A stretch of DNA of 64,000 nucleotides. Source: an uncultured Gammaproteobacteria bacterium. Lineage in GTDB: Bacteria > Patescibacteriota > Patescibacteriia > 2-12-FULL-57-11. The notes beneath the pieces are model-generated. The model saw only the letters and a list, made by a program, of their open reading frames with translations, was not told where the DNA came from and did no database searches. Shown here one piece after another: positions 1,371 to 63,960 of the stretch (position 1 is its first letter; each line of letters begins with the position of its first letter). Position numbers and translations under genes: made by a program. Where the stretch lies: assembly GCA_964648865.1 (NCBI GenBank), contig CAZYLV010000002.1, positions 15,272-79,271 of the forward strand, given 5' to 3'.

Positions 1371-1407
1371 TACGGAGGGCCCTCGTTTTGGTACGGTGCG
1401 GCGGTCT

Positions 1408-20245: not shown

Positions 20246-20307
20246 ACCGCATGGCCGCCGTCAACGCTTGACAGCGGCCTTCCGCCGCGGGAAACTGCCT
20301 GCGTTTT

Positions 20308-39610: not shown

Positions 39611-39629
39611 ACCGACCTGATCCAACCAT

Positions 39630-41273: not shown

Positions 41274-41274
41274 T

Positions 41275-43708: not shown

Positions 43709-43764
43709 AGACTGGGGGCAACTCACGGGCGATGATAGCACCGTCCCAGGACGGTGTCGATGGT

Positions 43765-44691
43765 ATGGAACACGTGCGATGCGCAATCTGCGGGACCGCC
43801 GACGCGGCGGTCGTGGCCACGCGCGGCTCGCTCGAAAAGGGCGGACCGACGCTCGCGATGCGCAACGTGATGTGCCGCCGGTGCGGCCTCGTGTACATGG
43901 ATCCACGGCCGACCGCCGAGGAATACGCCGAGCAGTATCGGCGGTTCGAGAAGCACCGCTACGGCATCGACAGCCAGGAGGGGGCCGACGCCTTCGTCGC
44001 CGAGCGCGGCGCGCGCTTCGATAAGGCGGACCTGATCCGTTTCGTCGCCTCGCATGTCGCGGTGCCTCCGGGGTCGATCCGTGCGCTCGACGTGGGCTGC
44101 GCCCATGGCCTCTTCTCGGAGCAGCTCAAGCGCACGCTCGGCTGCGCGGTGCAGGGCGTCGAACCCTCGGAGCGCCTGGCTGCCGCGGCCCGCAAGCGGG
44201 CGGAGATGGACGTCTTCGTCGGCACTCTCGATGCGTTCCTGAAGGCGCACCCGGATGCGGGCGGCTTCCACCTCATCGTGCTGAGCCATGTCTTCGAGCA
44301 CTTCCCGGATCCGCACGCCGCGCTCGAGGGCCTGCGTCGGCTGCTCGCGCCCGAGGGCGTGGTCTACGTCGAGGTCCCGGATGTCTCCCATTTCAAGAAG
44401 ACCATGGACCGGTTCTTCGACCTCTTCCACCCCTACTCCTACAGTCCGGCGACGCTCTCGCGGCTGTTGGAGCGCAACGGATGGAAGGCCATCGGCCGCG
44501 CCGACACCAAGAAGTACCGCCTCCAGGCCATCATCGCTCCGGAACGCCATCCGATGCCCGCGACCCGTTGGACCGAGGGAGGCGACCCGCGCGCGCTGAT
44601 GGCCGCGCTGCGCGCCAAGCGGCGTTGGGACGCCCTGCGGCGCGTGGCTGCGCCGATCGCGCGTCTGGTCCCGCGCCGACCCGTCGCATGA
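43765..44691 (+). CDS. Zn-ribbon + class I SAM-dependent methyltransferase (paralog family A, member 2)
   Basis: MEHVRCAICG...CRRCGLVYMDPRPT, then LDVGCAHG motif I. Clear paralog of 31480-32451. An alternative start lies at 43732. Confidence 0.75.
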   Translation: MEHVRCAICGTADAAVVATRGSLEKGGPTLAMRNVMCRRCGLVYMDPRPTAEEYAEQYRRFEKHRYGIDSQEGADAFVAERGARFDKADLIRFVASHVAVPPGSIRALDVGCAHGLFSEQLKRTLGCAVQGVEPSERLAAAARKRAEMDVFVGTLDAFLKAHPDAGGFHLIVLSHVFEHFPDPHAALEGLRRLLAPEGVVYVEVPDVSHFKKTMDRFFDLFHPYSYSPATLSRLLERNGWKAIGRADTKKYRLQAIIAPERHPMPATRWTEGGDPRALMAALRAKRRWDALRRVAAPIARLVPRRPVA

Positions 44692-46056: not shown

Positions 46057-47463
46057 ATGCGCACCATCCTGATCATGCTCTCCCGCGGGATCGTCGCCCG
46101 GAACATCCTCCGGACGGGCGTCTTGGACATCCTGCTCTCCGATCCGGACGTCCGCCTCGTCGTGCTCGTACCGCCGAACATCCCGGACTATTTCCGGAAG
46201 GACTTCGACCATCCACGCGTCATCCTCGAGGAATCCGAGGAGGTCCGCTACGGGCTGTTCCATCGGAAGGTCTTCGCGCCGGTCTACCAGAAGCTGGTCT
46301 ACACCGAGACGGCCAAGTTCTTCATGCGCTACGGCGGCCGCATCCCCAAGGGCAACAAGAGCCCCGTCGCGGCGTTCTTCGGCCACATCGGCGCCAGCAT
46401 CATCTCGCGGATGCCCTTCCTCAAGCCGATCTTCCGGGAGCTCGAGTTCCACCTCTTCCCGTACCACGGCTTCGACCGCTTCTTCGAGAAGTACAAGCCG
46501 GACCTGGTCGTCTCGACCATCGTCAAATCAAAACGGGACATCGCCATCCTCAAGGCGGCCAAGCGCTTCGGCGTGCCGCACATCAGCATGGCCCGGAGCT
46601 GGGACAACCTCGACCGTATCCTCATCGCCGTGCGGCCGCAGAAGATCATCGTCCAGAACGAGGTCATGCGCGAGCTGGCCGAGACGCTCCACGGTATCCC
46701 AAAGGAAGACGCCTTCGTCTCCGGTTTCCCGCAGTTCGACCTCTATAACGACCGTTCGCTGCTCATGTCGCGCGCCGACTTCCTCGCGTCGCTCGGGCTG
46801 GACCCCGCGCGCAAGGTCATCTTCTTCGCCTCCGAGGGCGTGTGGGCGCCGCACGGGGACCATGTGGTCGCGGCCCTCATCGCGCGCATGCGCGGCGGCG
46901 GGTTCGCCGAGCCGGTCTCGCTCATCGTCCGTCCGCACTATTCCGACCGCGCCGACGACGGTTCGAGCCGCTACGACCGCTTCGTGGGCGAGCCCGACGT
47001 CTTCGTGGACCGCAACCAGCGCATGCTCCGGTTCTTCGTCGACAAGTGGGACGCCTCACGCACGGAGATGGTGCACCTCATGAACGAGCTTGCGCATGCC
47101 TCCGTGCTCGTGACATACGCCACGACGATGGCCATCGAGGCGGCCATCTTCGACACGCCCGTCGTCAACGTCGCCTTCCGTTTGCCTGGGGAACCCAAGG
47201 ACGGGCCGTTCTTCGGCATGTTCTACGGCTCGTCGCACTACTCGAACGTCGTGAGGACCGGCGGCGTCCGCCTGGCAACGTCCGAGGAAGAGCTGGTGCG
47301 GTACGTGGATGAGGCGCTGCTGCACCCGGAGACGTTGCGCGCCGAGCGCCGCGTCATCGTGGAGCGCTTGGCGTACGGCAACGACGGGAAGTCCGGTGAG
47401 CGCGTCGGCCGTTTCATCCTCACATGCCTGCGGGAGCTGCCCTTCCGCCGCGTCATCGCCTGA
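46057..47463 (+). CDS. Putative GT-B-fold transferase, TagF/CDP-alcohol glycerophosphotransferase-like (uncertain), paralog 1
   Basis: 468 aa soluble protein with two Rossmann-like halves. Paralogous to 51006-52391 (shared MxxxxxxSRGxxARNxLxT N-terminus and PVVNVAF). Family assignment by weak resemblance only. Confidence 0.35.
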   Translation: MRTILIMLSRGIVARNILRTGVLDILLSDPDVRLVVLVPPNIPDYFRKDFDHPRVILEESEEVRYGLFHRKVFAPVYQKLVYTETAKFFMRYGGRIPKGNKSPVAAFFGHIGASIISRMPFLKPIFRELEFHLFPYHGFDRFFEKYKPDLVVSTIVKSKRDIAILKAAKRFGVPHISMARSWDNLDRILIAVRPQKIIVQNEVMRELAETLHGIPKEDAFVSGFPQFDLYNDRSLLMSRADFLASLGLDPARKVIFFASEGVWAPHGDHVVAALIARMRGGGFAEPVSLIVRPHYSDRADDGSSRYDRFVGEPDVFVDRNQRMLRFFVDKWDASRTEMVHLMNELAHASVLVTYATTMAIEAAIFDTPVVNVAFRLPGEPKDGPFFGMFYGSSHYSNVVRTGGVRLATSEEELVRYVDEALLHPETLRAERRVIVERLAYGNDGKSGERVGRFILTCLRELPFRRVIA

Positions 47464-47466
47464 CCT

Positions 47467-48936
47467 ATGCCGACCATCAAGGAATTGCGGGAGGTCTGCC
47501 AGAACTCCACGCAGGCGCCCTCTTGGGCCAGCCAGACCGTCTTCGGCAAGCTCAACCGTCGTTGGGCGATCTACCTGACATGGATCTTCGTGCACCTGCC
47601 GTTCACGCCCAACCAGGTGACCGCGGCGGGTACTGTCGTGTACCTGCTGGGCGCGGCCTGCTTCCTCGGCGGGACGCGCGGGTGGAATTTGGCGGGCGTC
47701 GGTCTGATCATCTTCTCCTTCATGCTGGACGCCGTGGACGGCGAGCTGGCGCGCTGGCGGGCGCATGTCAGCGGGCAGAAGGGCAAGCGCTTCGACATGG
47801 GCGGCGTCTTCGTGGAGCCTGTCTCGCACGATGTCCAGTACGGCTGGTTCTTCCTGCCGATCACGCTCGGGGTGTTCTGGCGGACGGGTTCCGATTGGGC
47901 CATCGTCGCAGGCATGGCCGCCACGGCCGGCAAGCTGCTCTTCCGGTTGCTCGAGTTCCGCACCGACGCTTTCCGCCGCTACGCCGACGAGACCCGCGGG
48001 ACCGTCTACGGCTGGGCCACCAAAAAGAGCACGCCCAAGACCGCGGCCTACGGCATCTACCGCAACCTGTTCGTGGGCACGGGCATGATCCCGCCGTTGC
48101 TCGTGGCGAGCGTCGTCGACCGCGTGGACGTCTTCCTGTACGCCTACGGCGTCCTGTTCTTCGCGGCCTGGGCGGCGCTGATGGTCCGCAACAGCCGCCG
48201 GGTGCTGGACGCCAGCAAGCGGCACGGCGCCGGACGCGTCCGCGCGCTGTTCCGTCCCAAGACCATCGTCTTCGACTTCGATGGGACGCTGGTCGACACG
48301 ATGGGGGAATACGCCGACATCGCCGCGGCGGTGATGGTCGAGTACTACGGCGCCGACCGCTCCTGGGCGCGGGAGAAGTACATGGAGACATCCGGCGTCC
48401 CGTTCCTGCAGCAGCTGGGCGTCATCTATCCGGGCGATGACCGCAACCCGCAGGCCTCGGAGGCCTTCGAGCACCGCAAGAACGTCTTCTTCGAGACGTT
48501 CCACGTGCCGGACGGGACGCGGCGGCTTGTCGCCGACCTCCGGGCGCGCGGCTACGCCGTCGGGGTGTCTTCCAACAACTTCCAGGCCAGCCTGGACCGC
48601 TTCGTGGAGCGGGAGCGGCTCTCCTTCAGCCTGGTGATGGGCTTCCGCGAGGGCTTCCGCAAGGGCGAGCAGCACCTGCGCCACGCCATGGAGAAGACCG
48701 GCTGCGCCATGGAGGAGATCCTCCTGGTGGGCGATTCCTTCCATGACGCCGCCGTGGCCGCGGGCAACGGCATCGGCTTCGTGGCCCGTGTCGGGACCTT
48801 CAGCGTCGAGGCATGGAAGGACAAGTACCCGCACGTCGTGGCCATCGGCGACCTCCAGGAACTGCCGCCGCTGCTCGAAGCGGCGGGTACGGAGGATGCG
48901 CCGTCTGCCCCGCCTGCACCGGAGACCTACGCCTGA
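47467..48936 (+). CDS. Fusion: CDP-alcohol phosphotransferase N-domain (membrane) + HAD-like phosphatase C-domain
   Basis: DAVDGELARW...G...D matches the CDP-OH_P_transf motif, within about 6 TM helices. The C-terminal IVFDFDGTLVDT and LLVGDSFHD are HAD motifs I and IV. Confidence 0.65.
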   Translation: MPTIKELREVCQNSTQAPSWASQTVFGKLNRRWAIYLTWIFVHLPFTPNQVTAAGTVVYLLGAACFLGGTRGWNLAGVGLIIFSFMLDAVDGELARWRAHVSGQKGKRFDMGGVFVEPVSHDVQYGWFFLPITLGVFWRTGSDWAIVAGMAATAGKLLFRLLEFRTDAFRRYADETRGTVYGWATKKSTPKTAAYGIYRNLFVGTGMIPPLLVASVVDRVDVFLYAYGVLFFAAWAALMVRNSRRVLDASKRHGAGRVRALFRPKTIVFDFDGTLVDTMGEYADIAAAVMVEYYGADRSWAREKYMETSGVPFLQQLGVIYPGDDRNPQASEAFEHRKNVFFETFHVPDGTRRLVADLRARGYAVGVSSNNFQASLDRFVERERLSFSLVMGFREGFRKGEQHLRHAMEKTGCAMEEILLVGDSFHDAAVAAGNGIGFVARVGTFSVEAWKDKYPHVVAIGDLQELPPLLEAAGTEDAPSAPPAPETYA

Positions 48937-49923: not shown

Positions 49924-51009
49924 ATGGCGAAACGCCTGGCCATCCTCTTCGGCACGCGCCCCGAGATCATCAAGATGGCGCCGTTCATCAAGGCCGCGCT
50001 CGCCAGGCGCGCGGACTTCTTCGTCATCCACACCGGGCAGCACTACTCGGAGATCATGGACAAGGTCTTCTGGAGGAACCTCGAGCTGCCGGACCCGAAA
50101 TACAACCTGGGCGTCGGCTCCGGCTCGCACGCCGAGCAGGTCGGGAAGATGATGATGGGCATCGAGAAGGTCCTCGTCGAGGAGCGTCCGGACCTGGTGT
50201 GCGTCTACGCCGACCTCAACACGTCCATCGCCGGCGCGCTCGCGGCGGCCAAGCTCGGCATCCCCATCCTCCAGCTGGAGGCGGGACTGCGCTCCTTCGA
50301 CCGGGCGATGCCGGAGGAGATCAACCGTCTGGTCGTCGACCGGCTGGCCACGCATTACTTCGCACCCACCGAGCTGCAGCGCGAGCACCTGCGCCGCGAG
50401 GGCATCGTCGAACGGGTCCACGTGACCGGCAACCTCATCGCCGACGCCGTAGCCGGCGCGCTGCCGACGGCGCTCGCCACGAGCGACGTGCTTGCGCGCC
50501 TCGGACTCCGCCCCAAGGGCTACGCGCTCGCCACCGTCCACCGCGCCGGCGCGGTGGACAGCAAGGGGACCTTCGGACGCCTGCTCGAGGGCCTCGGGCG
50601 CGTCGCGGCCGAGAACGGCCTGCCGGTGCTCTATCCCGTCCACCCGCGCTCGCGCAAGAACCTCGAGGCCTTCGCCTTGCCCGTGCCTGACGGCGTCCGG
50701 CTGACCGAACCGGTGGACTACTTCGACTTCCTGACGCTCGAGGCCAACGCCCGACTCATCCTTTCCGACTCCGGCGGCATCCAGGAGGAGGCGGCCATCC
50801 TGGGCGTCCCGCTCGTTACCTTGCGCGAGAACACCGAACGCCAGGAGACCGTGACGCTCGGCTCCAACGTCATCGCCGGCTACGATCCGGCGCGCATCGC
50901 CGCCGCGGCCAAGGACATGCTGGCGCGGCCCGCCGCTTGGCGGCATCCCTACGGCGAACGGGTGGCCGAGCGGATGTGGGACATCATGGAACGCGACATC
51001 GTGCGATGA
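49924..51009 (+). CDS. UDP-N-acetylglucosamine 2-epimerase (non-hydrolysing, WecB-like), copy 2
   Basis: LAILFGTRPEIIKMAPF...HTGQHYS...ILQLEAGLRS. Confidence 0.85.
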   Translation: MAKRLAILFGTRPEIIKMAPFIKAALARRADFFVIHTGQHYSEIMDKVFWRNLELPDPKYNLGVGSGSHAEQVGKMMMGIEKVLVEERPDLVCVYADLNTSIAGALAAAKLGIPILQLEAGLRSFDRAMPEEINRLVVDRLATHYFAPTELQREHLRREGIVERVHVTGNLIADAVAGALPTALATSDVLARLGLRPKGYALATVHRAGAVDSKGTFGRLLEGLGRVAAENGLPVLYPVHPRSRKNLEAFALPVPDGVRLTEPVDYFDFLTLEANARLILSDSGGIQEEAAILGVPLVTLRENTERQETVTLGSNVIAGYDPARIAAAAKDMLARPAAWRHPYGERVAERMWDIMERDIVR

Positions 51010-52391
51010 CCGTCTTCGTCACCGTCTCGCGCGGGGCCATCGCCCGCAACCTGCTGCACACGGCCTTCCTCGGCCGGCTGGCCGCCGCAGGCGTCGAGGT
51101 GGTGCTGCTGACCTCGGCCGCCGCGGACCAAGAGTTCCAGGCGGCCTTCTGCCGCCCGGGCGTCGCCTGTGCACCGCTCCTGCCGCATCGCTGGAGCCGG
51201 CTGGACTATGCCCTCGCCGGCCTGCACAAGGGGCTGGTCTATAACGAGACGCGCGAGCTCGTCGACCGCTACGGGATTTACGGCATCGAGATGCACGAGC
51301 GCGGCGGCGCGCCGCGGTTCCGGCATCTCCTCAAGAAGGCGGTCTTCAAGCCGTTGTCGCGCTCGCGGTCCCTCAAGCGCGCCGCGCGGCGTCTGGACGC
51401 GCTCTTGGTGCGTCCGCACGCCTACGATGCGCTGTTCGACCGGCACCGGCCCGCGGCGGTCTTCGCCACCAACCCTTTCGAGGATGCCGACACCGACGTG
51501 CTCAAGACCGCCCACGCCCGGGGGATCCCGACGGTCATCTTCCCCAAGAGCTGGGATAACCTCTCCAAGATGAACCTGCGCGTCGCGCCGGACCTGCTGC
51601 TCCTGTGGGGGCCGACGCTCGTCCGGGATGCCCGACGGTTCCACCTTCTCGACGGGGAGAGGATCCGCGTCGTCGGCGTGCCCCAGTACGACATCTATGA
51701 GGAGCAGGGCACGATCCAGCCGCGGGAGGCGTTCTTCCGGAGCATCGGTGCCGATCCGGCACGCCCGCTCGTGGTCTTCGGCTCCGAGGGCAAGATCAGC
51801 CCCGACGACGGCGACGTGGCGGCGATGCTGCACGCGCTCTTCCAGGCCCAGCCGACGGGACGCCGCCCGCAGCTCTTCGTCCGGCCGTACTACGCCCTGC
51901 CGGGCGAGGAGGAGAAGTTCGCCGCGCTCGTCGGCGCGCCGGACGTCATCATCGACCGGGCCTTCCGTCCCCGGCCGCAGTTCCGCGACCGTTGGGACTG
52001 GTCGCGCGAGCATGCCGTGCACTTCGCGAACCTCATGACGCACATGGATGCCATGGTCTGCGGCGCCTCGACGCTCACGCTGGACGCCGCGTATCGCGAC
52101 AAACCTGTCGTCAACGTGGCCTTCGACGGCAAGCGCGAGCTCCCGTACGGCCAGTCGGTGCGCCGTTGGTACGATTCCACGCATTTCAAGGCCATCCTCT
52201 CGCACGGCGGCACCGATGTCGTGCGCAGCGAGCAGGAGTTGGCGGAAGCGACGCTGACGGCGCTCCGCGAGCCGGGCCGCCGCGCGGCTGGACGCGCCGC
52301 ATTGCGGGCGGCATACTGCCCGCACATCCCGGGCGGGAGCGGGGCGGCCATCGCCCAGGCCGTGCTCGACGTGGCTGCCCGGAAGGGATAA
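51006..52391 (+). CDS. Putative GT-B-fold transferase, TagF-like (uncertain), paralog 2
   Basis: Paralog of 46057-47463. ATGA overlap with the upstream gene. Confidence 0.35.
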   Translation: MTVFVTVSRGAIARNLLHTAFLGRLAAAGVEVVLLTSAAADQEFQAAFCRPGVACAPLLPHRWSRLDYALAGLHKGLVYNETRELVDRYGIYGIEMHERGGAPRFRHLLKKAVFKPLSRSRSLKRAARRLDALLVRPHAYDALFDRHRPAAVFATNPFEDADTDVLKTAHARGIPTVIFPKSWDNLSKMNLRVAPDLLLLWGPTLVRDARRFHLLDGERIRVVGVPQYDIYEEQGTIQPREAFFRSIGADPARPLVVFGSEGKISPDDGDVAAMLHALFQAQPTGRRPQLFVRPYYALPGEEEKFAALVGAPDVIIDRAFRPRPQFRDRWDWSREHAVHFANLMTHMDAMVCGASTLTLDAAYRDKPVVNVAFDGKRELPYGQSVRRWYDSTHFKAILSHGGTDVVRSEQELAEATLTALREPGRRAAGRAALRAAYCPHIPGGSGAAIAQAVLDVAARKG

Positions 52392-53111: not shown

Positions 53112-54110
53112 ATGGCCAACGGAACGACCTTCGAACAGCGTACCCTCCGGGACGAGTACGACGCCGCGCGGCGCGAGGAGATCGCCCGGCTCATGGATCC
53201 GGCCACCGGGACGCTCGACCGCCGCTTCGCCAAGGACGTCGCCTGCCTGGTGTGCGGCTCCCGTGACGCCCGCCCCCTCTTCACCAAGCAGGGGATGGGC
53301 TTCGTGCGCTGCGCGTCCTGCTCCTTCATGTACGTCAACCCGCAGGTCGACGAAGCCGTGCTCGAGGAGGCCTACAAGCAGAGCCGCTCCAACGACATCT
53401 GGTTCGAGATCCTCAAGACGCCGGATCAGCAGAAGTACAACGTGGAGAAGTACGGCTGGTTCCTGGACCGGATCGGGGAGATCGCGCCGCCGCCGGCGCG
53501 GCTGCTCGACGTCGGCTGCTCGCTCGGGCATTTCCTGGCCATGGCGCGTGACCGTGGGCACGAGACCCTCGGGCTTGAGCTCGGGGAGAAGGCCGCTGCC
53601 TACGCGCGCGAGACCTACGGCCTGGACGTCCGCGAGACGCGCGTCGAGCGTCTCGAGGAGCCGGACGGCTCCTTCGGCGCCGTGACGCTCTTCGGCGTGC
53701 TCGAGCACCTCTCCGATCCTGTCGGCATCCTCAAGGTCCTGCGCCGGCTGGTGAAGCCGGACGGGGTGCTGGCCATGCTCGTGCCCAACAACCACAGCCT
53801 GGTGGCGCGCATGCTGCATGGCGAGGCCTTCGGTTTCGATGGCCGCAACCACCTCGGCTACTACACCAAGGAGACGCTGGCGCTGGCGCTCGATACGGCA
53901 GGCTTCGTCCCCGTGTCCATGACCACGCACGTCAGCTGCATCAACCCCATCCTCAACTGGCTGCACTACGACGATCCGTACTTCCCCAAGGAGGCGGGCA
54001 ACCTCGAGACCGAGTTCTCCCGCGTCGCCAAGCCGGCGCTGCTGAAGCTCATCGAGGAGCACGACCTCGGTCACCATCTCTACTGCATCGCCCGACCCAA
54101 GACCGCATGA
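53112..54110 (+). CDS. Zn-ribbon + class I SAM-dependent methyltransferase (paralog family A, member 3)
   Basis: CLVCGS...CASCSF Zn-ribbon, then LLDVGCSLGHFL motif I, LFGVLEHLSDP, LVKPDGVLAM. Confidence 0.75.
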   Translation: MANGTTFEQRTLRDEYDAARREEIARLMDPATGTLDRRFAKDVACLVCGSRDARPLFTKQGMGFVRCASCSFMYVNPQVDEAVLEEAYKQSRSNDIWFEILKTPDQQKYNVEKYGWFLDRIGEIAPPPARLLDVGCSLGHFLAMARDRGHETLGLELGEKAAAYARETYGLDVRETRVERLEEPDGSFGAVTLFGVLEHLSDPVGILKVLRRLVKPDGVLAMLVPNNHSLVARMLHGEAFGFDGRNHLGYYTKETLALALDTAGFVPVSMTTHVSCINPILNWLHYDDPYFPKEAGNLETEFSRVAKPALLKLIEEHDLGHHLYCIARPKTA

Positions 54111-55212: not shown

Positions 55213-56271
55213 TCATGCCAGGTGCTCCGGAAGGATGTGCTCGTCCATGGGTACGGCGGCGATCAGGCGCTTGCCGATGACCTCGGCCGAGCGGTTCGGG
55301 GGCAGGCCGCCCTTGCCCGGGCGCTTGAAGGCGATGTCCGTCTTGGCGACCACCTCGCCGGGGACGAGATCCCGCAGCGCGACGATGGCCGAGCCGGCCC
55401 AGGCGCGGCCTGCCGCGACGCTCTCGAGACGCTCGGTCTCGCTCTTGCCGCGCAACGCCGCCTCGAGCTCGCGGACCTGCGCGACCATGGCGGTGAGCTC
55501 CTCCGGCAGGAGCGCTCCCGGATTGTCCACGGAGCGCGGGTCCGCCTTGTCGAAGGTCAGGTGCTTCTCGACCATGCACGCGCCGAGGGCCACGGCCGCG
55601 AGCGGCAGGTGGAAGCCGCGCGAGTGGTCCGAGATGCCTACCGGCAGGCCGGTCAGCTCGCGCAGCTGCCCGATGCGCGGCAGGTTGACGTTCTCCGGTT
55701 CCGTCGGGTACTGGCTCACGCAATGGAAGATCCCGATGTCGCGCGCGCCGGCGTCGCGCAGCGTGGCGATGGCGTCGAGCACCTCCTGGTCGCTCTGCAG
55801 GCCGAAGGAGATGAGCACCGGTTTGCCGCGGCTGCCCACGTCGCGCAGGAAATCGGGATTGTTGGATTCGCCCGAGCCGACCTTGAAGTAGGGGACGTCC
55901 AGCGTCTTATCGAGGAACTCGATGGCCCAGTGGTCGTGCGGCGTGGCGAACCAGGCGATCCCTTTTGCGTCGGCCTCGTCGCGCAGCGCGCGCAGCTCGT
56001 CGTCGGTGAACTCCTTGTACTTGAGGCGCTCGAACCAATCGTAGCCGAGCTCGTCCTTGAGTCGGGCGCTGACGCGCTTGCTCACCAGGTTCTCCGTCTT
56101 CCAAGCCTGGTACTTCACCGCGTCGACCTTGGCCGTGACGGCCGCCTCGAGCTGGCCGCGCGCCAGGGCCATCTCACCGTAGTTGGTGACGCCGGCCTCG
56201 CAGATGATGAAGACGGGGTGCCCGTCGCCGACGGGCCGTCCGCCGAGGCTGATGGGTGAGACGGGCCTCAT
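55213..56271 (-). CDS. neuB: N-acetylneuraminate (nonulosonic acid) synthase, NeuB/LegI/PseI family with C-terminal SAF domain
   Basis: HPVFIICEAGVTNYGE...VDAVKYQ...KVGSGE...ISDHS, then an antifreeze-like SAF C-domain. Confidence 0.85.
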   Translation of the reverse strand: MRPVSPISLGGRPVGDGHPVFIICEAGVTNYGEMALARGQLEAAVTAKVDAVKYQAWKTENLVSKRVSARLKDELGYDWFERLKYKEFTDDELRALRDEADAKGIAWFATPHDHWAIEFLDKTLDVPYFKVGSGESNNPDFLRDVGSRGKPVLISFGLQSDQEVLDAIATLRDAGARDIGIFHCVSQYPTEPENVNLPRIGQLRELTGLPVGISDHSRGFHLPLAAVALGACMVEKHLTFDKADPRSVDNPGALLPEELTAMVAQVRELEAALRGKSETERLESVAAGRAWAGSAIVALRDLVPGEVVAKTDIAFKRPGKGGLPPNRSAEVIGKRLIAAVPMDEHILPEHLA

Positions 56272-56978
56272 GCGTTGGGGAACAGCACGGGGACGAGCGC
56301 CTGCGCGGTGCGCAGGTCCTCGGGGCCGTCGACGTCGAAGGTCGAAAGGCCGCTGATGACGAGCGGCAGGCAGCGGTCGCCGATGGGGATCTGCTTCTCA
56401 CGGATGACCTCAGGGCGGAACAGCCAGAGGTTGCCCATGGCGTAGAAGACCGGCTTGGACTGCCGCGTGTTGTATTTGGCGCGTTCCTCCGGGTTCGCGA
56501 AGCGCAGGCAGCCGTCCTCCTCGATGCGCCTGAGGTTCACGGGATGGAAATGGTTGGGGACCTCCTGCACGGACGTCACCGAGTCGGCCTCGGGGTGCGC
56601 GGCGAGCAGGGCGATGGCATCGGCGATCTCCTGGGTGCGGACGAAGGGCGAAGTCGGCTGCAGGAGCAGCACGGCGTCCGGCCCGTAGCCCTCGTTGGCC
56701 TTGAGCCACTCGAGCGCATGGCGCAGCACCGGCATCGTCGGCGACGTGTCCGTCGCGAGTTCCGCCGGCCGCACGTACGGGGTCTCGGCGCCGTGGGCTC
56801 GGGCCACGGCGGCGATCTCGGCGTCGTCCGTGTCGACGACGATGCGGGAGACGGCCGGGCAGGCGCGGGCGGCGGCGATGCCATAGGCAAGCATCGGCTT
56901 GCCGCCGAGGTCCGCGATGTTCTTCTTGGGGATGGACTTGGACCCGCCGCGCGCGGGAAGGATCGCCAGGACCTTCAT
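56268..56978 (-). CDS. neuA: Acylneuraminate cytidylyltransferase (CMP-nonulosonic acid synthetase)
   Basis: ILPARGGSKSIPKKNI...GKPML (CTP_transf_3 signature). Confidence 0.85.
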   Translation of the reverse strand: MKVLAILPARGGSKSIPKKNIADLGGKPMLAYGIAAARACPAVSRIVVDTDDAEIAAVARAHGAETPYVRPAELATDTSPTMPVLRHALEWLKANEGYGPDAVLLLQPTSPFVRTQEIADAIALLAAHPEADSVTSVQEVPNHFHPVNLRRIEEDGCLRFANPEERAKYNTRQSKPVFYAMGNLWLFRPEVIREKQIPIGDRCLPLVISGLSTFDVDGPEDLRTAQALVPVLFPNA

Positions 56979-57011: not shown

Positions 57012-57040
57012 TTGTCAAAGCCCCGGCGGGTCGGTACGAT
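57012..57040 (+). promoter_or_regulatory. Sigma70-like promoter candidate in the neuA/neuC divergent region (TTGTCA-N17-TACGAT)
   Basis: 5/6 -35 and 4/6 -10 at 17-bp spacing, about 20 nt upstream of the neuC start. Confidence 0.3.
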
Positions 57041-57060: not shown

Positions 57061-58272
57061 ATGCCCCTCACGCGCATCGCCATCTTTTCCGGGAAGCGCG
57101 GCGGGCTCGGTGCCTATCTGCCGCTCGTCCGGCTCATCGAGGCCGACCCGTCCCTCTCCGCGCATCTGGTGCTCGGGGACATGCACGCCTCTCCTTTTTT
57201 CGGGATGACCGAAGGCGAGGCGCGCGCGCTCTTTCCGGGCACCGACATCCGGGTCGTCGACATGGCCACCGGCGGCGACGATTCCGTCGCGGCGCGCCTG
57301 CGTGGCCTGGGGACGCTGCTCAGGGAGTCGGTGGCCGCGCTCGCCGATGTCCGGCCGGACGTGCTGTTCGTGCACGGCGACCGCGCCGAGCATCTGCTCA
57401 TGGCGCTGGCCGCCTCGACCAGCGGCATCCTCGTGGCGCACACTCAGGGCGGCGACGTCTCAGGCAACATCGACGAGCACCAGCGGCACGCCATCACCAA
57501 GCTGGCGCACCTCCACTTCCCGGAGACGGCCGAGGCCGCGGCGCGTCTCGCCTTGCTCGGCGAGGAAACATGGCGCATCCATCCGGTGGGATCCCTGTAC
57601 GTGGACCGCATCGTGGCGCGGATGTTCCCGCCGGCCGCCGACGTCCGCCAGCGCTACGGTCTGGGCCCGGCGGGCGACTATGCCGTGGTGCTGCTCCATC
57701 CGGAGACCTGGAAGTCGCGTGCCGAGAACCAGGCCATGGCCGAGAGCGTCCTCACGGCGGTGGCGGCCTCCGGCATGCGCGCGTTGCTGGTCTACCCGTG
57801 CTCCGATCCCGGCTTCGGCGGCATCGTCGATGCCATCGAAGCGCGGCGCGGAGCACCCGGCGTGGCCATCGAGAAGAACGTGCCCAACATGGATTTCCTG
57901 AGCCTCCTCTCCGGCGCGGCCGTGCTGGTGGGGAATTCCAGCGCCGCATTGGTCGAGGCGCCGTATCTGGGCGTGCCGGCCGTCAATGTCGGCGAGCGCC
58001 AGCGCGGCCGACGGCGCGACGCCAACGTCATCGACGTCCCGGAACCGAGCGTCGCGGGGGTCGCTGCGGCCCTCACGCGCGCCCGCGAGGACGTCGCCTT
58101 CCGCGCCGGTCTGGCCGCCGCGGGCGGCAGGCTCGGCGACGGCACCGCCTCGCGCCGCATCCTCGAGGTGCTGCGCGGGCTCGACCCTGCGGCGACCGGC
58201 GCGCTCCAGAAGCGCCTGACGTACGCCGCCGCGGACATCGACGCCGCGGGATTGCTAAGGAAAAAGGGGTGA
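57061..58272 (+). CDS. neuC: UDP-N-acetylglucosamine 2-epimerase (hydrolysing, NeuC/LegG-like)
   Basis: IAIFSGKRGGLG N-terminus, HGDRAEHL and HTQGGDVSG motifs. A third, distinct 2-epimerase type in the window. Confidence 0.75.
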   Translation: MPLTRIAIFSGKRGGLGAYLPLVRLIEADPSLSAHLVLGDMHASPFFGMTEGEARALFPGTDIRVVDMATGGDDSVAARLRGLGTLLRESVAALADVRPDVLFVHGDRAEHLLMALAASTSGILVAHTQGGDVSGNIDEHQRHAITKLAHLHFPETAEAAARLALLGEETWRIHPVGSLYVDRIVARMFPPAADVRQRYGLGPAGDYAVVLLHPETWKSRAENQAMAESVLTAVAASGMRALLVYPCSDPGFGGIVDAIEARRGAPGVAIEKNVPNMDFLSLLSGAAVLVGNSSAALVEAPYLGVPAVNVGERQRGRRRDANVIDVPEPSVAGVAAALTRAREDVAFRAGLAAAGGRLGDGTASRRILEVLRGLDPAATGALQKRLTYAAADIDAAGLLRKKG

Positions 58273-58273
58273 T

Positions 58274-58282
58274 GGTATAGTC
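58274..58282 (+). promoter_or_regulatory. Extended -10 promoter candidate (TGgTATAGT) upstream of sqdB
   Basis: TG-n-TATAGT in a locally AT-richer 40-bp gap, about 30 nt upstream of the ATG at 58313. Confidence 0.3.
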
Positions 58283-58312: not shown

Positions 58313-59473
58313 ATGCGTGTCCTGATCCTCGGAGCTGACGGTTACCTCGGTTGGCCCACCGCGATGCACTTCGCCGCGCGTGGCGACGAGGTGGCGGTCC
58401 TCGATAACATGGCCAAACGCGTCTGGGAGGCCGAGGTCGGCGCGCAGCCCCTCTGGGCCATCCCGACCCTGCAACGCCGTCTCCAGCTCTGGAAGGAGAA
58501 GACCGGCAAGCCGATGAAGCTGTACGTCGGCGACATCGCCGAGAACCACCGCTTCGTCTACCACGTCTTCGAGCAGTTCCGGCCCGAGGCCATCATCCAT
58601 TACGCGGAGCAGCCCTCGGCGCCCTATTCGATGATTTCGCGGGAGAGCGCCGTCTCCACCCAGCGCAACAACGTGCTCGGGACGCTCAACGTGCTCTTCG
58701 CCATGAAGAAGTACGTGCCGGACGCGCATCTCATCAAGCTCGGCACGATGGGCGAGTACGGCACGCCGAACATCGACATCGAGGAGGGCTACATCACCAT
58801 CGAGCACAACGGACGCTCGGACCGTCTGCCCTTCCCCAAGATGGCCGGCTCCTTCTATCACTGGAGCAAGGTCCACGACAGCGGCAACATCATGTTCGCC
58901 GCCAAGATCTGGGACCTGCGCGCCACGGACCTCAACCAGGGCGTGGTCTACGGGATCGACACGCCGGAGACGCTCTTGCACCCCGACCTGCGCACCAGCT
59001 TCCACTACGACGGCGTCTTCGGCACGGCGCTCAACCGCTTCTGCGTGCAGGCCGTGGCCGGGATCCCGCTCACGCTCTACGGCACTGGCGGCCAGAAGCG
59101 CGGCTTCCTCAACATCAACGATACGCTGCAGTGCGTGGCGATCGCCGCGGACAACCCCGCCGAACGCGGGGAGTTCCGCGTCTTCAACCAATTCACGGAG
59201 GTCTTCACCGTGGCCGAGCTGGCCGAACGCGTCGTCTCGGCGGCGGGCGCCGTGGGGATCCAGGCCACGACGCGGCGCCTGGAGAACCCGCGCATCGAGA
59301 AGGAAGACCATTACTACAACCCCAAGAACGACGCGCTCCTCAAGCTCGGGCTCAAGCCCCGGCTGCTTTCCCAGGAGCTCGTCGACAGCATGCTCAAGAG
59401 GATCAGGGAGGCGCAGGCCCAGGTCGACCTGGACACCATCTTGCCTGCGGTGCAATGGAAGCAGCGCACATGA
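58313..59473 (+). CDS. sqdB: UDP-sulfoquinovose synthase (SQD1/SqdB/Agl3 family)
   Basis: Near-collinear identity with plant SQD1 signature blocks: LGTMGEYGTPNIDIEEGYITI, RATDLNQGVVYG, GTALNRFCVQA, GEFRVFNQFTE, HYYN.K. Confidence 0.9.
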   Translation: MRVLILGADGYLGWPTAMHFAARGDEVAVLDNMAKRVWEAEVGAQPLWAIPTLQRRLQLWKEKTGKPMKLYVGDIAENHRFVYHVFEQFRPEAIIHYAEQPSAPYSMISRESAVSTQRNNVLGTLNVLFAMKKYVPDAHLIKLGTMGEYGTPNIDIEEGYITIEHNGRSDRLPFPKMAGSFYHWSKVHDSGNIMFAAKIWDLRATDLNQGVVYGIDTPETLLHPDLRTSFHYDGVFGTALNRFCVQAVAGIPLTLYGTGGQKRGFLNINDTLQCVAIAADNPAERGEFRVFNQFTEVFTVAELAERVVSAAGAVGIQATTRRLENPRIEKEDHYYNPKNDALLKLGLKPRLLSQELVDSMLKRIREAQAQVDLDTILPAVQWKQRT

Positions 59474-60216
59474 TGCCGCCTATGGACGCGACAGGCATCA
59501 TCCTGTCCGCGGGCATCGGCCAGCGGATGGGCGAGCCAACCAAGGACCGGCCGAAAGGCATGCTCGACCTCGGCGGCCGGCCGCTCTTGGCGTACGGCAT
59601 CCGCTTCCTGCGGTCCGTGGGCGTGTCCCGTGTCGTCGTCGTCGCCGGGCACCATGCCGCCACCGTCCATGACTTCGTCCGGGGTTTCGATCCGGCGGTC
59701 GAGGTCGTCGACAACCCCGACTACCTCAAGGGCAACCTCTACTCGGTGTTGACGGCGTTGCGCGTCGTGCCCGGCGCCTTCCTGTTGGCCAATGCCGACC
59801 ACATCTACTCGCGGCAGATCGCCGCGACGGTGGCCGCCGCCGCGCGCGGCATCACCGCCTACTGCGACACCGACCGCGCCTTGGGCGACGACGACATGAA
59901 GGTCAAGCTGGACGCCGCGGGCATGCTCGCAGGCATCTCCAAGCGGCTCGTCGACTTCGACCGCGGCTACGTGGGCCTGACGTACTGCGACGCGGCCTCG
60001 CGTCCGCTCTACGACGCCGCCTGCGCGCGCGTCGTGGCACGCCTGGGCGACAAGGCCGTGGCCGAACAGGTGCTCCAGGAACTGGCCGACGGCGGCGCCG
60101 CGGTCGGCATCGGCGACATCTCCGGCCATGGCTGGCTGGAGGTCGATTTTCCGGAGGAATTCGTCCGCGCGAAGGCCGCGGTAGCCAAGGACGTGGCGCG
60201 GTACTGGACCGCCTGA
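59470..60216 (+). CDS. MobA-like nucleotidyltransferase (NTP_transf_3), second stand-alone copy
   Basis: GIILSAGIGQRMGEPTKDRPKGMLDLGG. ATGATG overlap with sqdB. Confidence 0.65.
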   Translation: MMPPMDATGIILSAGIGQRMGEPTKDRPKGMLDLGGRPLLAYGIRFLRSVGVSRVVVVAGHHAATVHDFVRGFDPAVEVVDNPDYLKGNLYSVLTALRVVPGAFLLANADHIYSRQIAATVAAAARGITAYCDTDRALGDDDMKVKLDAAGMLAGISKRLVDFDRGYVGLTYCDAASRPLYDAACARVVARLGDKAVAEQVLQELADGGAAVGIGDISGHGWLEVDFPEEFVRAKAAVAKDVARYWTA

Positions 60217-60228
60217 GCGCGGTCGCGT

Positions 60229-61134
60229 ATGCGGCAGGGCGCCTGCGGCCATCTCGACCGGCTCGAAGCCGAGAGCATCCACGTCTTCCGCGAGGCCGTG
60301 GCCGAGTTCCGGAATCCGGTCATGCTCTACTCCATCGGCAAGGATTCCAGCGTCCTGCTGCGGTTGGCGCAGAAGGCCTTCGCGCCCGGGCCGATGCCCT
60401 TCCCGCTGCTGCATGTCGACACCAAGTACAAGTTCCGGGAGATGATCGAGTTCCGCGACGCCGTCGCCCGGGACAACGGGCTGCGGCTGATCGTCCACAG
60501 CAACGAGGAACCGGCCGCCCAGCAGATGAAGCCCGAGGAGGCGCACACCGAGACCTACATCTACTACAAGAAGACCAAGCCGCTGCTCGAGGCCATGCGC
60601 ATCCACGGCTTCGATGCGGCCTTCGGCGGGGCACGTCGTGAGGAGGAGAAGTCCCGCGCCAAGGAGCGCATCTTTTCCGTGCGCAACGAACATGGGGTCT
60701 GGGACCCCAAGCGCCAACGGCCCGAGGTCTGGGACCTCTACAACTGCAAGCTCAACGCCGGGGAGACGATGCGCGTCTTCCCGCTGTCCGACTGGACGGA
60801 AGCCGACGTCTGGGCGTACATCGCGCGCGAACGCATCCCGGTGGTGCCGCTCTACTTCGCCGCGACGCGTCGCGTGGTCCGGCGCAACGGCGTCCTGCTG
60901 CGGCTCGACGAGCACGTGCGGGCCCGGCCCGACGAGGAGGTCATGGAGCTTTCCTGCCGCTACCGGACGCTGGGCTGTTCGCCGTCCACCGGCGCGGTGC
61001 CGTCGACCGCCGCGACCGTAGAGGAGATCCTGGCCGAGGTGGTCTCCGCGCGCAATTCGGAACGCGAGACGCGGGCCATCGACCACGCCGGCGAGAACGC
61101 CATGGAGGAGAAGAAACGGGAAGGGTATTTCTGA
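60229..61134 (+). CDS. cysD: Sulfate adenylyltransferase subunit 2
   Basis: PAPS-reductase-fold ATP sulfurylase small subunit: [27 protein letters not shown]. Confidence 0.9.
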
Positions 61135-61135
61135 T

Positions 61136-62398
61136 ATGGACGCATCCGCCTACGCCTTCGGGCTGCGCCGCGTCGCCGCCATCGGCAGCGTCGACGACGG
61201 CAAGTCCACGCTCATCGGACGCCTGCTCTACGACACCGGCAACGTCTACGACGACCAGCTCGCCGCCGTCGAGAAGAGCAGCCGCCGCAAGGGCAAGGAG
61301 GGCATCGACCTCTCCTTCATCACCGACGGCCTGGCCGCCGAGCGCGAGCAAGGCATCACCATCGACGTGGCCTACCGCTACGTCACGACGCCGACCCATC
61401 GGTTCATCCTCGCGGACGCGCCGGGCCATGAGGAGTACACGCGCAACATGGTGACCGCCGCCGCCGGCGCCGACACCGCGGTGGTGCTGACGGACGTCGC
61501 CGCGGGCCCGACGCTGCAGACCGTCCGCCACCTGTACCTGGCGCATCTCTTCGGCGTCCGGCAGCTCATCGTGGCGGTCAACAAGATGGACCAGGTAGGC
61601 TACGCGCAGGACGGCTTCGGGCGCATCCGCGATGCGGTGGCCGCCTCGCTGGAGCGGATGGGCGTCCAGGGTGTGGCCTTCATCCCGGTCTCCGCGCTCG
61701 CGGGCGACATGGTGGCGCACCGCGGTGAGCGCCTGCCCTGGTACGGCGGACCGACCCTGCTCGAGGCCATCTCGCGCGACCCGGCCACGGCCGCGCAGCT
61801 CGACGCGCCGTTCCGGATGTGCGTGCAGACGGCGGTGCGCGCCGGCACGGACTTCCGTGGGTACGCCGGAACGGTCGCCGCGGGGCGCCTGCGCGTCGGC
61901 GACGCGGTCGTCGTCTTGCCGAGCGGCCGCACCTCCGCCGTGACGCGCATCCTGCTCGACCCGCACGGACTCCCGGAGGCGCGCTGGCCGCAGGCCGTGG
62001 TCGTGACGCTTGCCGACGACGTCGGGGTGAGCCGCGGCGACGTGTTGGTGCGCGGCGACGAATCCGCCCGTCCCCGGATCGGGGATGCGCTGGCGGCGGA
62101 CGTCTGCTGGATGTCCGAGCATCCGCTCGCGCCCGGCGCCACGTACCTCATCAAGCACGGCACCCGCACCACCAAAGCGACGGTCACGGCCATCGACCAC
62201 CGCATCGACATGCGGACCGTCTCGCCCGTGCCGGCGGAGTCCCTGACGCTCAACGACGTCGGCGCACTGCGCATGGCCGCGCACGAGCCGCTCGTGTACG
62301 ATGCTTATCGCGACAACAGGACCACCGGCGCCATCCTCATGATCGACCCCCTCTCCAAGGCGACGGTCGGCGTCGGCCTCATCAGGCACGCCCCATGA
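61136..62398 (+). CDS. cysN: Sulfate adenylyltransferase subunit 1 (GTPase), without an APS-kinase domain
   Basis: GSVDDGKSTLIGRLL (G1), DAPGHEEY (G3), NKMD (G4). 420 aa, so no fused CysC. Confidence 0.9.
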   Translation: MDASAYAFGLRRVAAIGSVDDGKSTLIGRLLYDTGNVYDDQLAAVEKSSRRKGKEGIDLSFITDGLAAEREQGITIDVAYRYVTTPTHRFILADAPGHEEYTRNMVTAAAGADTAVVLTDVAAGPTLQTVRHLYLAHLFGVRQLIVAVNKMDQVGYAQDGFGRIRDAVAASLERMGVQGVAFIPVSALAGDMVAHRGERLPWYGGPTLLEAISRDPATAAQLDAPFRMCVQTAVRAGTDFRGYAGTVAAGRLRVGDAVVVLPSGRTSAVTRILLDPHGLPEARWPQAVVVTLADDVGVSRGDVLVRGDESARPRIGDALAADVCWMSEHPLAPGATYLIKHGTRTTKATVTAIDHRIDMRTVSPVPAESLTLNDVGALRMAAHEPLVYDAYRDNRTTGAILMIDPLSKATVGVGLIRHAP

Positions 62399-63114
62399 GC
62401 CCTCGACCCGTCGACGCGTCCGCCGTGCCCGCGCTCGCTGCGCGCTTCCGCGAGGCCTCCGCCGAAGACCTCATCCGCTGGGCGGGCGAGACGTTCGGTG
62501 ACGGCTTGGCGATCGCCTCGAGCTTCAGCGCCGAGGACGTCGTCCTCATCGACCTGGCCGTGCGCCTGGCACCGCGCACGACGGTCTTCACGTTGGATAC
62601 CGGCCGGCTGCCGGAGGAGACGCACGCCGTCATCGACGCCGTCCGCCGCAGGTACGGGCTGGCGGTGGAGGTCCATATGCCTGATGCGGGGAAGGCGGAA
62701 GCGTTGGTGCGCGAGAAGGGGATGTACTCCTTCCGGCAGGGCCTTGAGGAACGGCGTTCTTGCTGCTTCGTGCGCAAGGTGGAGCCGCTGCGCCGCGCGC
62801 TCCAGGGCAAGGGAGCCTGGATGACCGGGCTGCGCAACGGCCAGGCGGCCACGCGCCATGAGGTGGATCGGATCGCGTGGGACGGGCTCAACGGCGGGCT
62901 CGTGAAGATCAACCCGCTGGCGTCATGGACGTCCGAGCGCATCTGGGAGCATGTCCGCGCCAACGGCCTGCCGTACAACGCGCTCTACGACAAGGGCTAC
63001 ACCTCGATCGGCTGCGCGCCATGCACCCGTCCGGTGCAGCCGGGCGAGGACGAACGCGCCGGTCGCTGGTGGTGGGAGGATCCCGACAAGAAGGAATGCG
63101 GCCTGCACCGCTGA
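62395..63114 (+). CDS. cysH: Adenylyl-sulfate (APS) reductase, 4Fe-4S type
   Basis: PAPS/APS-reductase fold with the cluster cysteines CC (RRSCCF) and CxxC (SIGCAPCT) characteristic of APS-specific enzymes, plus catalytic KECGLH. Confidence 0.8.
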   Translation: MSPRPVDASAVPALAARFREASAEDLIRWAGETFGDGLAIASSFSAEDVVLIDLAVRLAPRTTVFTLDTGRLPEETHAVIDAVRRRYGLAVEVHMPDAGKAEALVREKGMYSFRQGLEERRSCCFVRKVEPLRRALQGKGAWMTGLRNGQAATRHEVDRIAWDGLNGGLVKINPLASWTSERIWEHVRANGLPYNALYDKGYTSIGCAPCTRPVQPGEDERAGRWWWEDPDKKECGLHR

Positions 63115-63117
63115 GCG

Positions 63118-63960
63118 CTAGAGCGCAAGCAACGCGGCGCCGAGCACCATGAGCGCTCCCGCGGCCACCCTCTCCGGGTGGCCGCGTTCCTTGAGCATCG
63201 GTCCGGACAGCAGGATGACGAAGAGGATCGACGTCCGGCGCAGGGCGGAGGAGTAGCTGGCCGGACCGAGGGTCAGCGCCATGTTGAAGAGGACGATGAC
63301 GCCCGTGTAGATGACGGGCGAGAGCAGCAGCATACCGAGCTGGCGGGGGGTGAGCCGTCGGGGCAGATGCTCGCGACGCAGCGTCGTCGCGACGATGAGT
63401 CCGACGAAGCCGAGCACGGCCATCGGCGCGAAGGTGGCCGAAGTCCGGGCCACGGCGAGCTTGTCGAAATTGATGGAGATGCTGGCCGCGAGCGCGCCGA
63501 GGAAGGCGATGCGCACGCCTGCGTCGGAGCGCAACAGCCGCCACGGGAGCAGGAAGTCGCGTGCCGTGTGGAGATGCCGCCGCCAGCCGGGCGGGCCGCC
63601 GTCCGCGGCGCCGGGATTGCCGCGCGAGAGCACGTAGAGACCGAGCGAGAGCAGCGGGACGCCGGCCCAGCCCGCCGGTCCGGGGATCTCTCCGAGGATG
63701 AGGATGCCGGTGAACAGGGCGAAGAGCGGCGCCGTGGCGGAGATGGGCGCGACGAGCGAGGCGTCGGTGCGCGCCAGCGCGAAGAGCTCCCCGCCGATGA
63801 TGGCGATGTTGAGCACGGCGGTCGCGGCCAGCGGCCAGAAGGCGCCTGTGGGGGAGTACCAGTCGATGTCCGGCGGCGGGCGCGACCAGACGGCGGTGAG
63901 GACGGCGAGCAGCACGCTGCCCATGAGCATGTTCACCGTCGTCACGAAGCGCGCGGGCAA
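63118..63960 (-). CDS. EamA/DMT-family transporter
   Basis: 10 predicted TM helices in two 5-TM repeats. The upstream end lies close to the window edge, so the start is uncertain. Confidence 0.6.
   Translation of the reverse strand: MPARFVTTVNMLMGSVLLAVLTAVWSRPPPDIDWYSPTGAFWPLAATAVLNIAIIGGELFALARTDASLVAPISATAPLFALFTGILILGEIPGPAGWAGVPLLSLGLYVLSRGNPGAADGGPPGWRRHLHTARDFLLPWRLLRSDAGVRIAFLGALAASISINFDKLAVARTSATFAPMAVLGFVGLIVATTLRREHLPRRLTPRQLGMLLLSPVIYTGVIVLFNMALTLGPASYSSALRRTSILFVILLSGPMLKERGHPERVAAGALMVLGAALLAL

Follow-up and report, generated by a model that had tools for sequence, protein, structure and literature searches.

SQD1 chemistry has, to our knowledge, only two outputs so far: the sulfolipid headgroup and the sulfoquinovose of archaeal N-glycans. 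Pathways to 9-deoxy nonulosonic acids start with a short-chain dehydrogenase/reductase (SDR) acting at C4/C6 of uridine diphosphate N-acetylglucosamine (UDP-GlcNAc) and continue with NeuC-, NeuB- and NeuA-like enzymes. Here we describe a row of genes at positions 58313-63960 of a 64-kb stretch of contig CAZYLV010000002.1 (the window), in which sqdB, encoding an SQD1/SqdB-family enzyme, stands together with the sulfate-activating and sulfate-reducing genes cysD, cysN and cysH. Directly upstream of sqdB lie neuC and a neuB-neuA pair. The region is best explained as one half of a conserved module, the half that supplies sulfur; these three neu genes belong to the same module. We consider it highly probable that the row is a dedicated glycan module leading from sulfate over sulfite to a C6-sulfonate, and that it serves neither sulfur assimilation nor sulfolipid synthesis. 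To a 9-deoxy-9-sulfo nonulosonic acid as the end product we give an even chance.

Comparison with described systems

In the agl1-agl4 cluster of Sulfolobus acidocaldarius, as in the window, an SQD1 homologue serves a surface glycan and a nucleotidyltransferase gene lies alongside. The agl cluster comprises a glucokinase, an NDP-glucose pyrophosphorylase and a membrane glycosyltransferase (PMC4388408). The window, in contrast, has a nucleotidyltransferase of the LicC/IPCT/PntC type, genes for sulfite supply and neuCBA, and no glucokinase was found among its scanned open reading frames (ORFs; all but a few of the window). At the protein level, the window's SqdB resembles SQD1, SqdB and Agl3 over its full length and has the same catalytic residues. 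However, it falls under the equivalog cut-off of NCBIfam model NF041015 and belongs to a separate clade that nearly always adjoins neuC, neuB and neuA, never sqdX- or sqdD-type transferases. Sulfolipid operons (sqdB-sqdX and sqdB-sqdD-sqdC) use the same enzyme family for their first committed step, but the partner of sqdB in the window is no lipid glycosyltransferase.

The legionaminic, pseudaminic and neuraminic acid pathways (LegB/PseB, LegG/NeuC, LegI/NeuB, LegF/NeuA) agree in the order of their steps with the route proposed for the window module. Whereas these pathways begin with a 4,6-dehydratase, the module would begin with a sulfite-adding SDR of the SQD1 type. Its core would need neither an aminotransferase nor an acetyltransferase, a single sulfonating SDR replacing the dehydratase, aminotransferase and acetyltransferase steps. 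The window's NeuB and NeuA also fall below the equivalog cut-offs of NeuB_NnaB, PseI and PseF. A further likeness is found in rhizobia, where NodP and NodQ are dedicated CysD/CysN paralogues for Nod-factor sulfation; NodQ has an adenosine 5'-phosphosulfate (APS) kinase and gives 3'-phosphoadenosine 5'-phosphosulfate (PAPS) for O-sulfation by a sulfotransferase. There, as in the window, a glycoconjugate locus has its own sulfate activation apart from housekeeping assimilation. Unlike NodP/NodQ, the window lacks the kinase, and an APS reductase would supply sulfite for a carbon-sulfur bond.

Make-up of the gene row

Given the G+C content of about 70% in the window, coding ORFs were picked by their third-position G+C. 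Five closely packed genes occupy the forward strand at 58313-63114. They encode an SQD1/SqdB-family enzyme of what we call the 'KPH' clade (58313-59473, 386 residues), a LicC/IPCT/PntC-type nucleotidyltransferase (59470-60216, 248 residues; PF12804, NTP_transf_3, 70.6 bits), the small subunit of sulfate adenylyltransferase, CysD (60229-61134), its GTPase subunit, CysN (61136-62398, 420 residues), and CysH, a thioredoxin-dependent Fe-S APS reductase (62395-63114). From sqdB to cysH, neighbouring genes are separated by at most 12 nucleotides or overlap by 4. The ATG of the nucleotidyltransferase gene overlaps the sqdB stop codon (ATGA), which points to translational coupling, cysD and cysN are spaced by 1 nucleotide, and the start of cysH overlaps the stop of cysN by 4 nucleotides. 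An earlier note on this DNA had named the same six genes, the sixth encoding an EamA/DMT-family membrane protein (63118 to beyond 64000; PF00892, 83 bits), and profile searches together with the SQD1 comparison place all six where it had put them. Its description of the row as co-directional holds from sqdB to cysH but not for the EamA gene, which lies on the reverse strand, convergent to cysH, and is cut by the window end. The EamA protein is found in full, with 314 residues, on an identical metagenome contig, L004. As a homologue occurs in none of the other sqdB loci compared, this gene is probably not part of the module.

All three Cys proteins pass the cut-offs of their families. CysD scores 441 bits on TIGR02039 (cut-off 396.6) and passes the cut-off of NF009214 too, and CysN scores 475 bits on TIGR02034 (cut-off 336.1). 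Of the 632 positions of the CysNC model, CysN covers only 24-432, in agreement with the earlier description of a CysN without an APS-kinase domain. For CysH, the scores are 251.6 bits with TIGR02055 (APS_reductase), whose cut-off is 235.3, and 280 bits with NF002537. Its translation displays both the CC...CxxC cluster cysteines and the ECGLH motif, in line with its earlier designation as a 4Fe-4S-type APS reductase. From their sequences, CysDN is predicted to be able to form APS from sulfate, and the Fe-S protein CysH to be able to reduce APS to sulfite.

Two sigma-70-like sites occur in 9 kb of this region against 0.4 expected, both being matches to the consensus only. One, in the divergent intergenic region between neuA and neuC (57012-57040, forward strand), reads TTGTCA-17-TACGAT with 9 of 12 matches. 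The other (58252-58281, forward strand), TTGCTA-18-TATAGT, has an extended -10 element preceded by TG; it overlaps the end of neuC and lies 32 nucleotides 5' of the sqdB start codon, in DNA of 70% G+C. No clear Shine-Dalgarno sequence is visible ahead of the sqdB start codon.

A separate clade of SqdB

Compared with Arabidopsis SQD1 (1QRR), the window's SqdB scores 496 bits over the full length, residues 2-384 aligning with 3-384. On NF041015 it matches end to end with 464 bits (E 3e-139), under the cut-off of 575 bits. T145, M146, G147, Y182, H183 and K186 (SQD1 numbering) are kept here and likewise in nearly all members of the clade. Because these are the catalytic residues of SQD1, the protein very probably uses the same sulfite-addition chemistry, and judged by its sequence it has the full catalytic apparatus for adding sulfite to a UDP-4-keto-hexose-5,6-ene.

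Scanning species-representative genomes for SqdB yielded 80 loci with 51-71% identity, and 79 full-length relatives were compared. Among them, 28 carry K36, P47 and H231 and form one group in a neighbour-joining tree. Relative to SQD1, the substitutions R36K, D40E, S47P and D231H are invariant in this clade, and R229 is exchanged for S, A or G (S229 in the window), whereas the canonical clade retains R36, S47, R229 and D231. These invariant changes suggest an altered specificity. The signature is widespread: it is present in all of the best 120 hits in a large protein collection (65-73% identity), and no fewer than 120 protein clusters formed at 90% identity carry it. Among its carriers are Saccharibacteria, Kaiser-, Falkow- and Parcubacteria, Gaiellales-type actinobacterial metagenome-assembled genomes (MAGs), Desulfarculales- and Syntrophaceae-type MAGs and gammaproteobacterial MAGs. 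Databases label the clade proteins 'UDP-sulfoquinovose synthase' or 'NAD-dependent epimerase/dehydratase'. Another candidate signature was rejected: Arg101, essential in Agl3, is Pro in the window's SqdB, but Pro also stands there in 30 of the 53 sequences outside the nonulosonic-acid-context set and so does not discriminate.

The commonest role of a bacterial sqdB is in sulfolipid synthesis, and the locus might accordingly make sulfoquinovosyl-diacylglycerol as its sole product. We regard this as extremely improbable. The window gene does not belong to the canonical clade, in whose loci a GT4 or GT2 glycosyltransferase gene lies directly downstream in six of the ten sampled, as in classical sqdB-sqdX. 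No sqdX- or sqdD-like gene adjoins it, as had been noted earlier; its neighbours are neuC upstream and the NTP_transf_3 gene downstream. The surroundings, too, are those of a glycan locus: the island extends over more than 64 kb and has genes of the Wzy-like and Wzx-like types and many for glycosyltransferases.

Outside the window's clade, a number of SqdB homologues of 680-1160 residues (P0149, P0167, P0180, P0194, P0295 and some 20 others) contain inserts of about 340 residues. These look intein-like and interrupt the protein either at about residue 145, where the catalytic Thr/Met lies, or at about residue 234, some proteins having both.

The clade is linked with neuC, neuB and neuA

Upstream of sqdB, the window encodes a NeuB-family nonulosonic acid synthase (55213-56271, reverse strand, 352 residues; PF03102 NeuB plus SAF), a NeuA-type cytidine monophosphate (CMP)-nonulosonate synthetase (56268-56978, reverse strand, 236 residues; PF02348 CTP_transf_3) and a NeuC-type hydrolysing UDP-GlcNAc 2-epimerase (57061-58272, forward strand, 403 residues; PF02350). 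The neuB-neuA pair is transcribed divergently from neuC. This neighbourhood is characteristic of the clade. At least two of NeuA, NeuB and NeuC are encoded within 10 kb of sqdB in 25 of the 28 signature loci and in none of the 51 others (Fisher p = 1.3e-17, with kinship ignored), and NeuC homologues in 24 of 28 against 0 of 51. The 51 canonical loci have neither neu nor cys genes nearby. On the clade side, 66 of the 72 Neu neighbour genes share the strand of sqdB, and the three loci without the link are L012, at a contig edge, L030, on a 5.9-kb contig, and L042. The linkage persists across differing gene orders in several phyla, with neuC-sqdB-neuA in Saccharibacteria, sqdB-neuA-dehydrogenase-neuB in Gaiellales-type MAGs and neuA-sqdB-neuB in Kaiserbacteria-type MAGs. 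Three further members from another database (P0074, P0072 and P0114), looked up on long contigs of other sources, all stand beside Epimerase_2, CTP_transf_3 and NeuB genes.

The Neu proteins themselves are of two kinds. NeuC scores 269 bits on TIGR03568 (NeuC_NnaA; cut-off 235.9), and this equivalog is passed in all four loci tested. The window's NeuB, in contrast, stays below both TIGR03569 (256 bits, cut-off 399.65) and PseI (199 bits, cut-off 340.25) and scores 143 bits against NeuB of N. meningitidis. The best NCBIfam match of its NeuA is PseF, with 152 bits under a cut-off of 205.7. The same sub-threshold pattern is seen in the window, L038, L013 and L019 (NeuB 251-266 bits, NeuA 145-155 bits). 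Because the scores lie uniformly under the N-acetylneuraminic acid (Neu5Ac) and pseudaminic acid equivalog cut-offs, NeuB and NeuA of these loci are classed, on their profile scores, as a coherent, non-canonical subtype. The module NeuBs share changes such as F112H, at a position held by Phe in N. meningitidis NeuB and in the PseI structure; this serves as a lead and not as evidence.

Sulfite supply and its recurrence beside the clade

A CysH-like gene lies beside sqdB in six of the 28 clade loci (L013, L021, L024, L028, L038 and the window), and a PAPS_reduct gene lies directly upstream of sqdB in two of the three database look-ups. Two clade loci have CysDN. The CysH-like protein of L013 passes the sulfonucleotide-reductase cut-off. 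A gene of the TauE/SafE sulfite-exporter family is found inside the module, between the methyltransferase gene and neuA, in two loci (L013, 12287-13033; L094, 10287-11033). One of the three look-ups has such a gene inside its module.

The most complete recurrence comes from L038, a Falkowbacteria MAG of low G+C content with unambiguous ORFs. On one strand, it encodes a GT461-like protein, neuC, a methyltransferase, neuA, cysH, cysD, cysN, sqdB and neuB. The window counterparts of the first and third of these genes are a GT-B-fold, TagF/TarL-like protein that we call GT461 (51006-52391, forward strand, 461 residues) and a class I S-adenosylmethionine methyltransferase (53112-54110, forward strand, 332 residues; Pfam Methyltransf_23/11/12/25), an accessory gene with homologues in eight of the 28 clade loci. 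Identities are 32% between GT461 and its 463-residue counterpart, 39% for the methyltransferase and 70% for CysD. In a distant bacterium, then, nine genes of the window are found again as a single operon.

Since the cysH-cysD-cysN-sqdB run and its neighbours recur in this way, we find support for the view that the cysDN-cysH set serves the SQD1-type enzyme and not cysteine synthesis. This had been proposed in the earlier note, and the CysH-like genes beside clade sqdB, the L038 run and the TauE/SafE genes all speak for it. By sequence alone, CysD, CysN and CysH are inseparable from assimilatory enzymes, as they pass general family cut-offs, and an ordinary assimilatory sulfate-reduction operon could have come to lie beside glycan genes by chance. 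We judge this very improbable. The cys genes are closely packed on the strand of sqdB, their arrangement with sqdB is found again in L038, and neither a sulfite reductase nor cysK was found among the scanned ORFs of the window, as the earlier note had stated. That note had also named such genes just past the window end as the finding that would speak for ordinary assimilation. The 6.6 kb beyond the end, read on the metagenome contigs L004 and L005, which carry an identical CysH, hold neither, and glycan genes continue there.

A different use of the clade enzyme would dispense with sulfite altogether: as a UDP-GlcNAc 5,6- or 4,6-dehydratase, it would lead to a plain 9-deoxy nonulosonic acid, and the cys genes would be otherwise employed. 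Agl3 yields UDP-glucose-5,6-ene when sulfite is absent, and Pen provides a precedent, forming UDP-6-deoxy-GlcNAc-5,6-ene en route to pseudaminic acid in Bacillus thuringiensis (PMC8987622). However, the clade retains the SQD1 active site, including the T-M-G motif and H183, and not the TDE/TDK motifs of dehydratases (PMC8987622). The repeated occurrence of cysH beside sqdB, joined in two loci by cysDN and in two by TauE genes, Patescibacteria MAGs among them, likewise makes a sulfite-free role improbable.

Two side observations concern sulfur supply elsewhere in the clade. In the TauE/SafE loci L013 and L094, cysH is present and cysDN absent. In a Gaiellaceae MAG, a 959-residue protein with a BFD-like [2Fe-2S] domain (L014, 7107-9986, reverse strand) is encoded divergently, adjoining sqdB; it might conceivably play a redox part in supplying sulfite.

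Ahead of the L038 operon (107-2727), we also noticed ORFs that, judged by eye, are HisF-like, HisH-like and, apparently frameshifted, N-acetyl-sugar amidotransferase-like. Trios of the HisF/HisH/amidotransferase type furnish nonulosonic acids and sugars related to them with acetamidino groups.

Proposed pathway and product

The steps past sulfite formation are modelled on the conserved gene neighbourhood. CysDN would convert sulfate to APS and CysH would reduce APS to sulfite. The clade SqdB, whose substrate is possibly UDP-GlcNAc, would then form UDP-6-deoxy-6-sulfo-GlcNAc, from which the NeuC-type hydrolysing 2-epimerase would release 6-deoxy-6-sulfo-N-acetylmannosamine (6-deoxy-6-sulfo-ManNAc). 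Enzymes of the Epimerase_2 (NeuC) family work via a 2-acetamidoglucal intermediate, and the NeuC substrate must therefore be N-acetylated. The divergent NeuB would join 6-deoxy-6-sulfo-ManNAc and phosphoenolpyruvate to a 9-deoxy-9-sulfo-Neu5Ac-type nonulosonic acid, which the divergent NeuA would activate with cytidine triphosphate. GT461 is a candidate for the transferase onto the surface glycan, and the methyltransferase may act as an optional modifier.

GT461 is confidently modelled as a GT-B protein. It resembles NeuC-type epimerases and TarL/TagF and, more distantly, Kdo (3-deoxy-D-manno-oct-2-ulosonic acid) and polysialyl transferases, and it is a candidate transferase for the CMP-activated product. 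The window has two TagF-like GT-B paralogues, of which only GT461 has a close L038 counterpart. The other, at 46057-47463, is 29% identical to that counterpart, against 32% for GT461.

A single transferase-like gene is all that the L038 operon holds, which fits with a single activated end product; an initiating sugar transferase gene follows the operon on the other strand. Taken together, we propose, with slightly less than even confidence, that the SQD1-like clade marks a pathway, not described so far, whose product is a CMP-activated 9-deoxy-9-sulfo nonulosonic acid and for which some loci bring their own sulfite supply. The earlier note had expected sulfoquinovose itself as the end product. 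The link with neuC, neuB and neuA, which it had overlooked, points to a sulfonated nonulosonic acid instead.

Several observations weigh against this proposal. The characterised activities of SQD1 and Agl3 are with UDP-glucose alone (PMC4388408, PMC8987622). Many GT4/GT2 genes that could transfer a UDP-sulfo-hexose directly are present in the window and in several other loci. Four Saccharibacteria neuC-sqdB-neuA loci have no NeuB within 10 kb, and in L026 genes for a PseB/PglF-type dehydratase and a DegT aminotransferase are present as well. No fusion of SqdB with Neu or Cys enzymes was seen among 150 representatives, and it is the lack of Neu fusions that counts here; the long hits of that search are SqdB proteins with the ~340-residue inserts or with an unidentified C-terminal extension.

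Most of these points also speak for the chief rival reading, a slight widening of that in the earlier note. In it, a glycosyltransferase of the island transfers UDP-sulfoquinovose, or UDP-6-sulfo-N-acetylquinovosamine, as a hexose, and neuCBA make a nonulosonic acid of their own, free of sulfur, for that glycan; the genes would keep company only because one repeat unit holds both sugars. Agl3 does feed sulfoquinovose into Sulfolobus N-glycans (PMC4388408), and in L010 three GT4 genes lie upstream of neuC-sqdB-neuA. We nonetheless think such direct transfer rather unlikely, though a serious alternative. It would leave the L038 operon with one transferase-like gene for two activated sugars. It would also give no reason why the neu link is limited to one SqdB clade and is kept across gene orders and phyla, why NeuB and NeuA form a coherent non-canonical subtype, or why the clade-specific SqdB substitutions, suggestive of a changed specificity, are invariant.

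In full-text searches of the literature, no report was found that ties sqdB to neu genes or describes a natural C-sulfonated nonulosonic acid. Matches to 'sulfo-sialic acid' turned out to be synthetic neuraminidase inhibitors, not natural sugars.

The nucleotidyltransferase and the surrounding glycan island

The nucleotidyltransferase at 59470-60216 occurs in one of the 28 clade loci, that of the window, and is not a conserved member of the module. All other loci compared lack it. Its best PDB matches are inositol-1-phosphate cytidylyltransferase (2XME, 50 bits), 4MND, the PntC fusion 6PD1 and LicC (1JYK). A role as supplier of UDP-glucose is unsupported, as the protein is closest to inositol-1-phosphate, phosphocholine and phosphonate cytidylyltransferases and not to glucose-1-phosphate uridylyltransferase. 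Besides a phosphonate pathway, the window encodes an inositol-1-phosphate synthase and a CDP-alcohol transferase/HAD fusion, and the enzyme may therefore serve an inositol or phosphonate decoration of the glycan.

Upstream of the module, the whole window is one glycan island. It comprises three Wzy_C-TPR proteins, many GT4/GT2 genes, SDRs, an AsnB-like amidotransferase, a DegT aminotransferase, a formyltransferase, a myo-inositol-1-phosphate synthase, a Wzx-like flippase and several methyltransferases. The Wzy_C-TPR proteins are encoded by three tandem paralogues (1285-7981), each with an O-antigen ligase/polymerase-like Wzy_C domain fused to TPR repeats, an architecture that also adjoins the module in L096 (11961-14324).

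The inositol-related genes lie at 18881-20260 (reverse strand), 37468-38256, 47464-48936 and 59470-60216. They encode myo-inositol-1-phosphate synthase, LicC/IPCT/PntC-type nucleotidyltransferases, of which the window has three, and the CDP-alcohol phosphatidyltransferase/HAD fusion. By its gene content this set looks like a decoration route of the CDP-inositol or inositol-phosphate kind, one that would be out of the ordinary for a bacterial glycan island. The phosphonate module (39621-46052) starts with a fusion of phosphoenolpyruvate mutase and NTP_transf_3 cytidylyltransferase (39621-41273) and a thiamine pyrophosphate-dependent decarboxylase-like ORF (~41002-42384). It continues with an Fe-alcohol dehydrogenase (41943-43496), a methyltransferase (43732-44691) and the Wzx-like flippase (44481-46052). 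This composition suggests that a CMP-activated phosphonate, possibly of the hydroxyethylphosphonate type, decorates the same glycan.

Just past the window end, after the EamA gene, L004 and L005 carry a second ulosonic-acid set (L004, 5396-10568): CTP_transf_3, a NeuB-cupin fusion of 510-530 residues, a GFO/IDH/MocA oxidoreductase, a phosphatase of the histidine-phosphatase family and an APH-type kinase. It recurs beside the sqdB-neu module on an unrelated 474-kb contig (L096, 389-4492), where a HAD hydrolase replaces the phosphatase and kinase.

Implications

The more modest conclusion, that an SQD1-type enzyme is fed by a glycan island's own line from sulfate to sulfite, is useful for annotation. 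The enzyme families and the logic of the pathway are already known; the product, if confirmed, would be a new class of sugar. Should the full proposal be true, SQD1 chemistry would have a third output. The sugar would represent a new, strongly acidic class among surface sugars and would be the first of the natural sialic-acid-like ones to contain a carbon-sulfur bond; current surveys of nonulosonic acids and nucleotide sugars would overlook it. This sulfonated nine-carbon acid would be made by bacteria that include some with very small genomes, and it would constitute a new entry of sulfur into the organosulfonate cycle.

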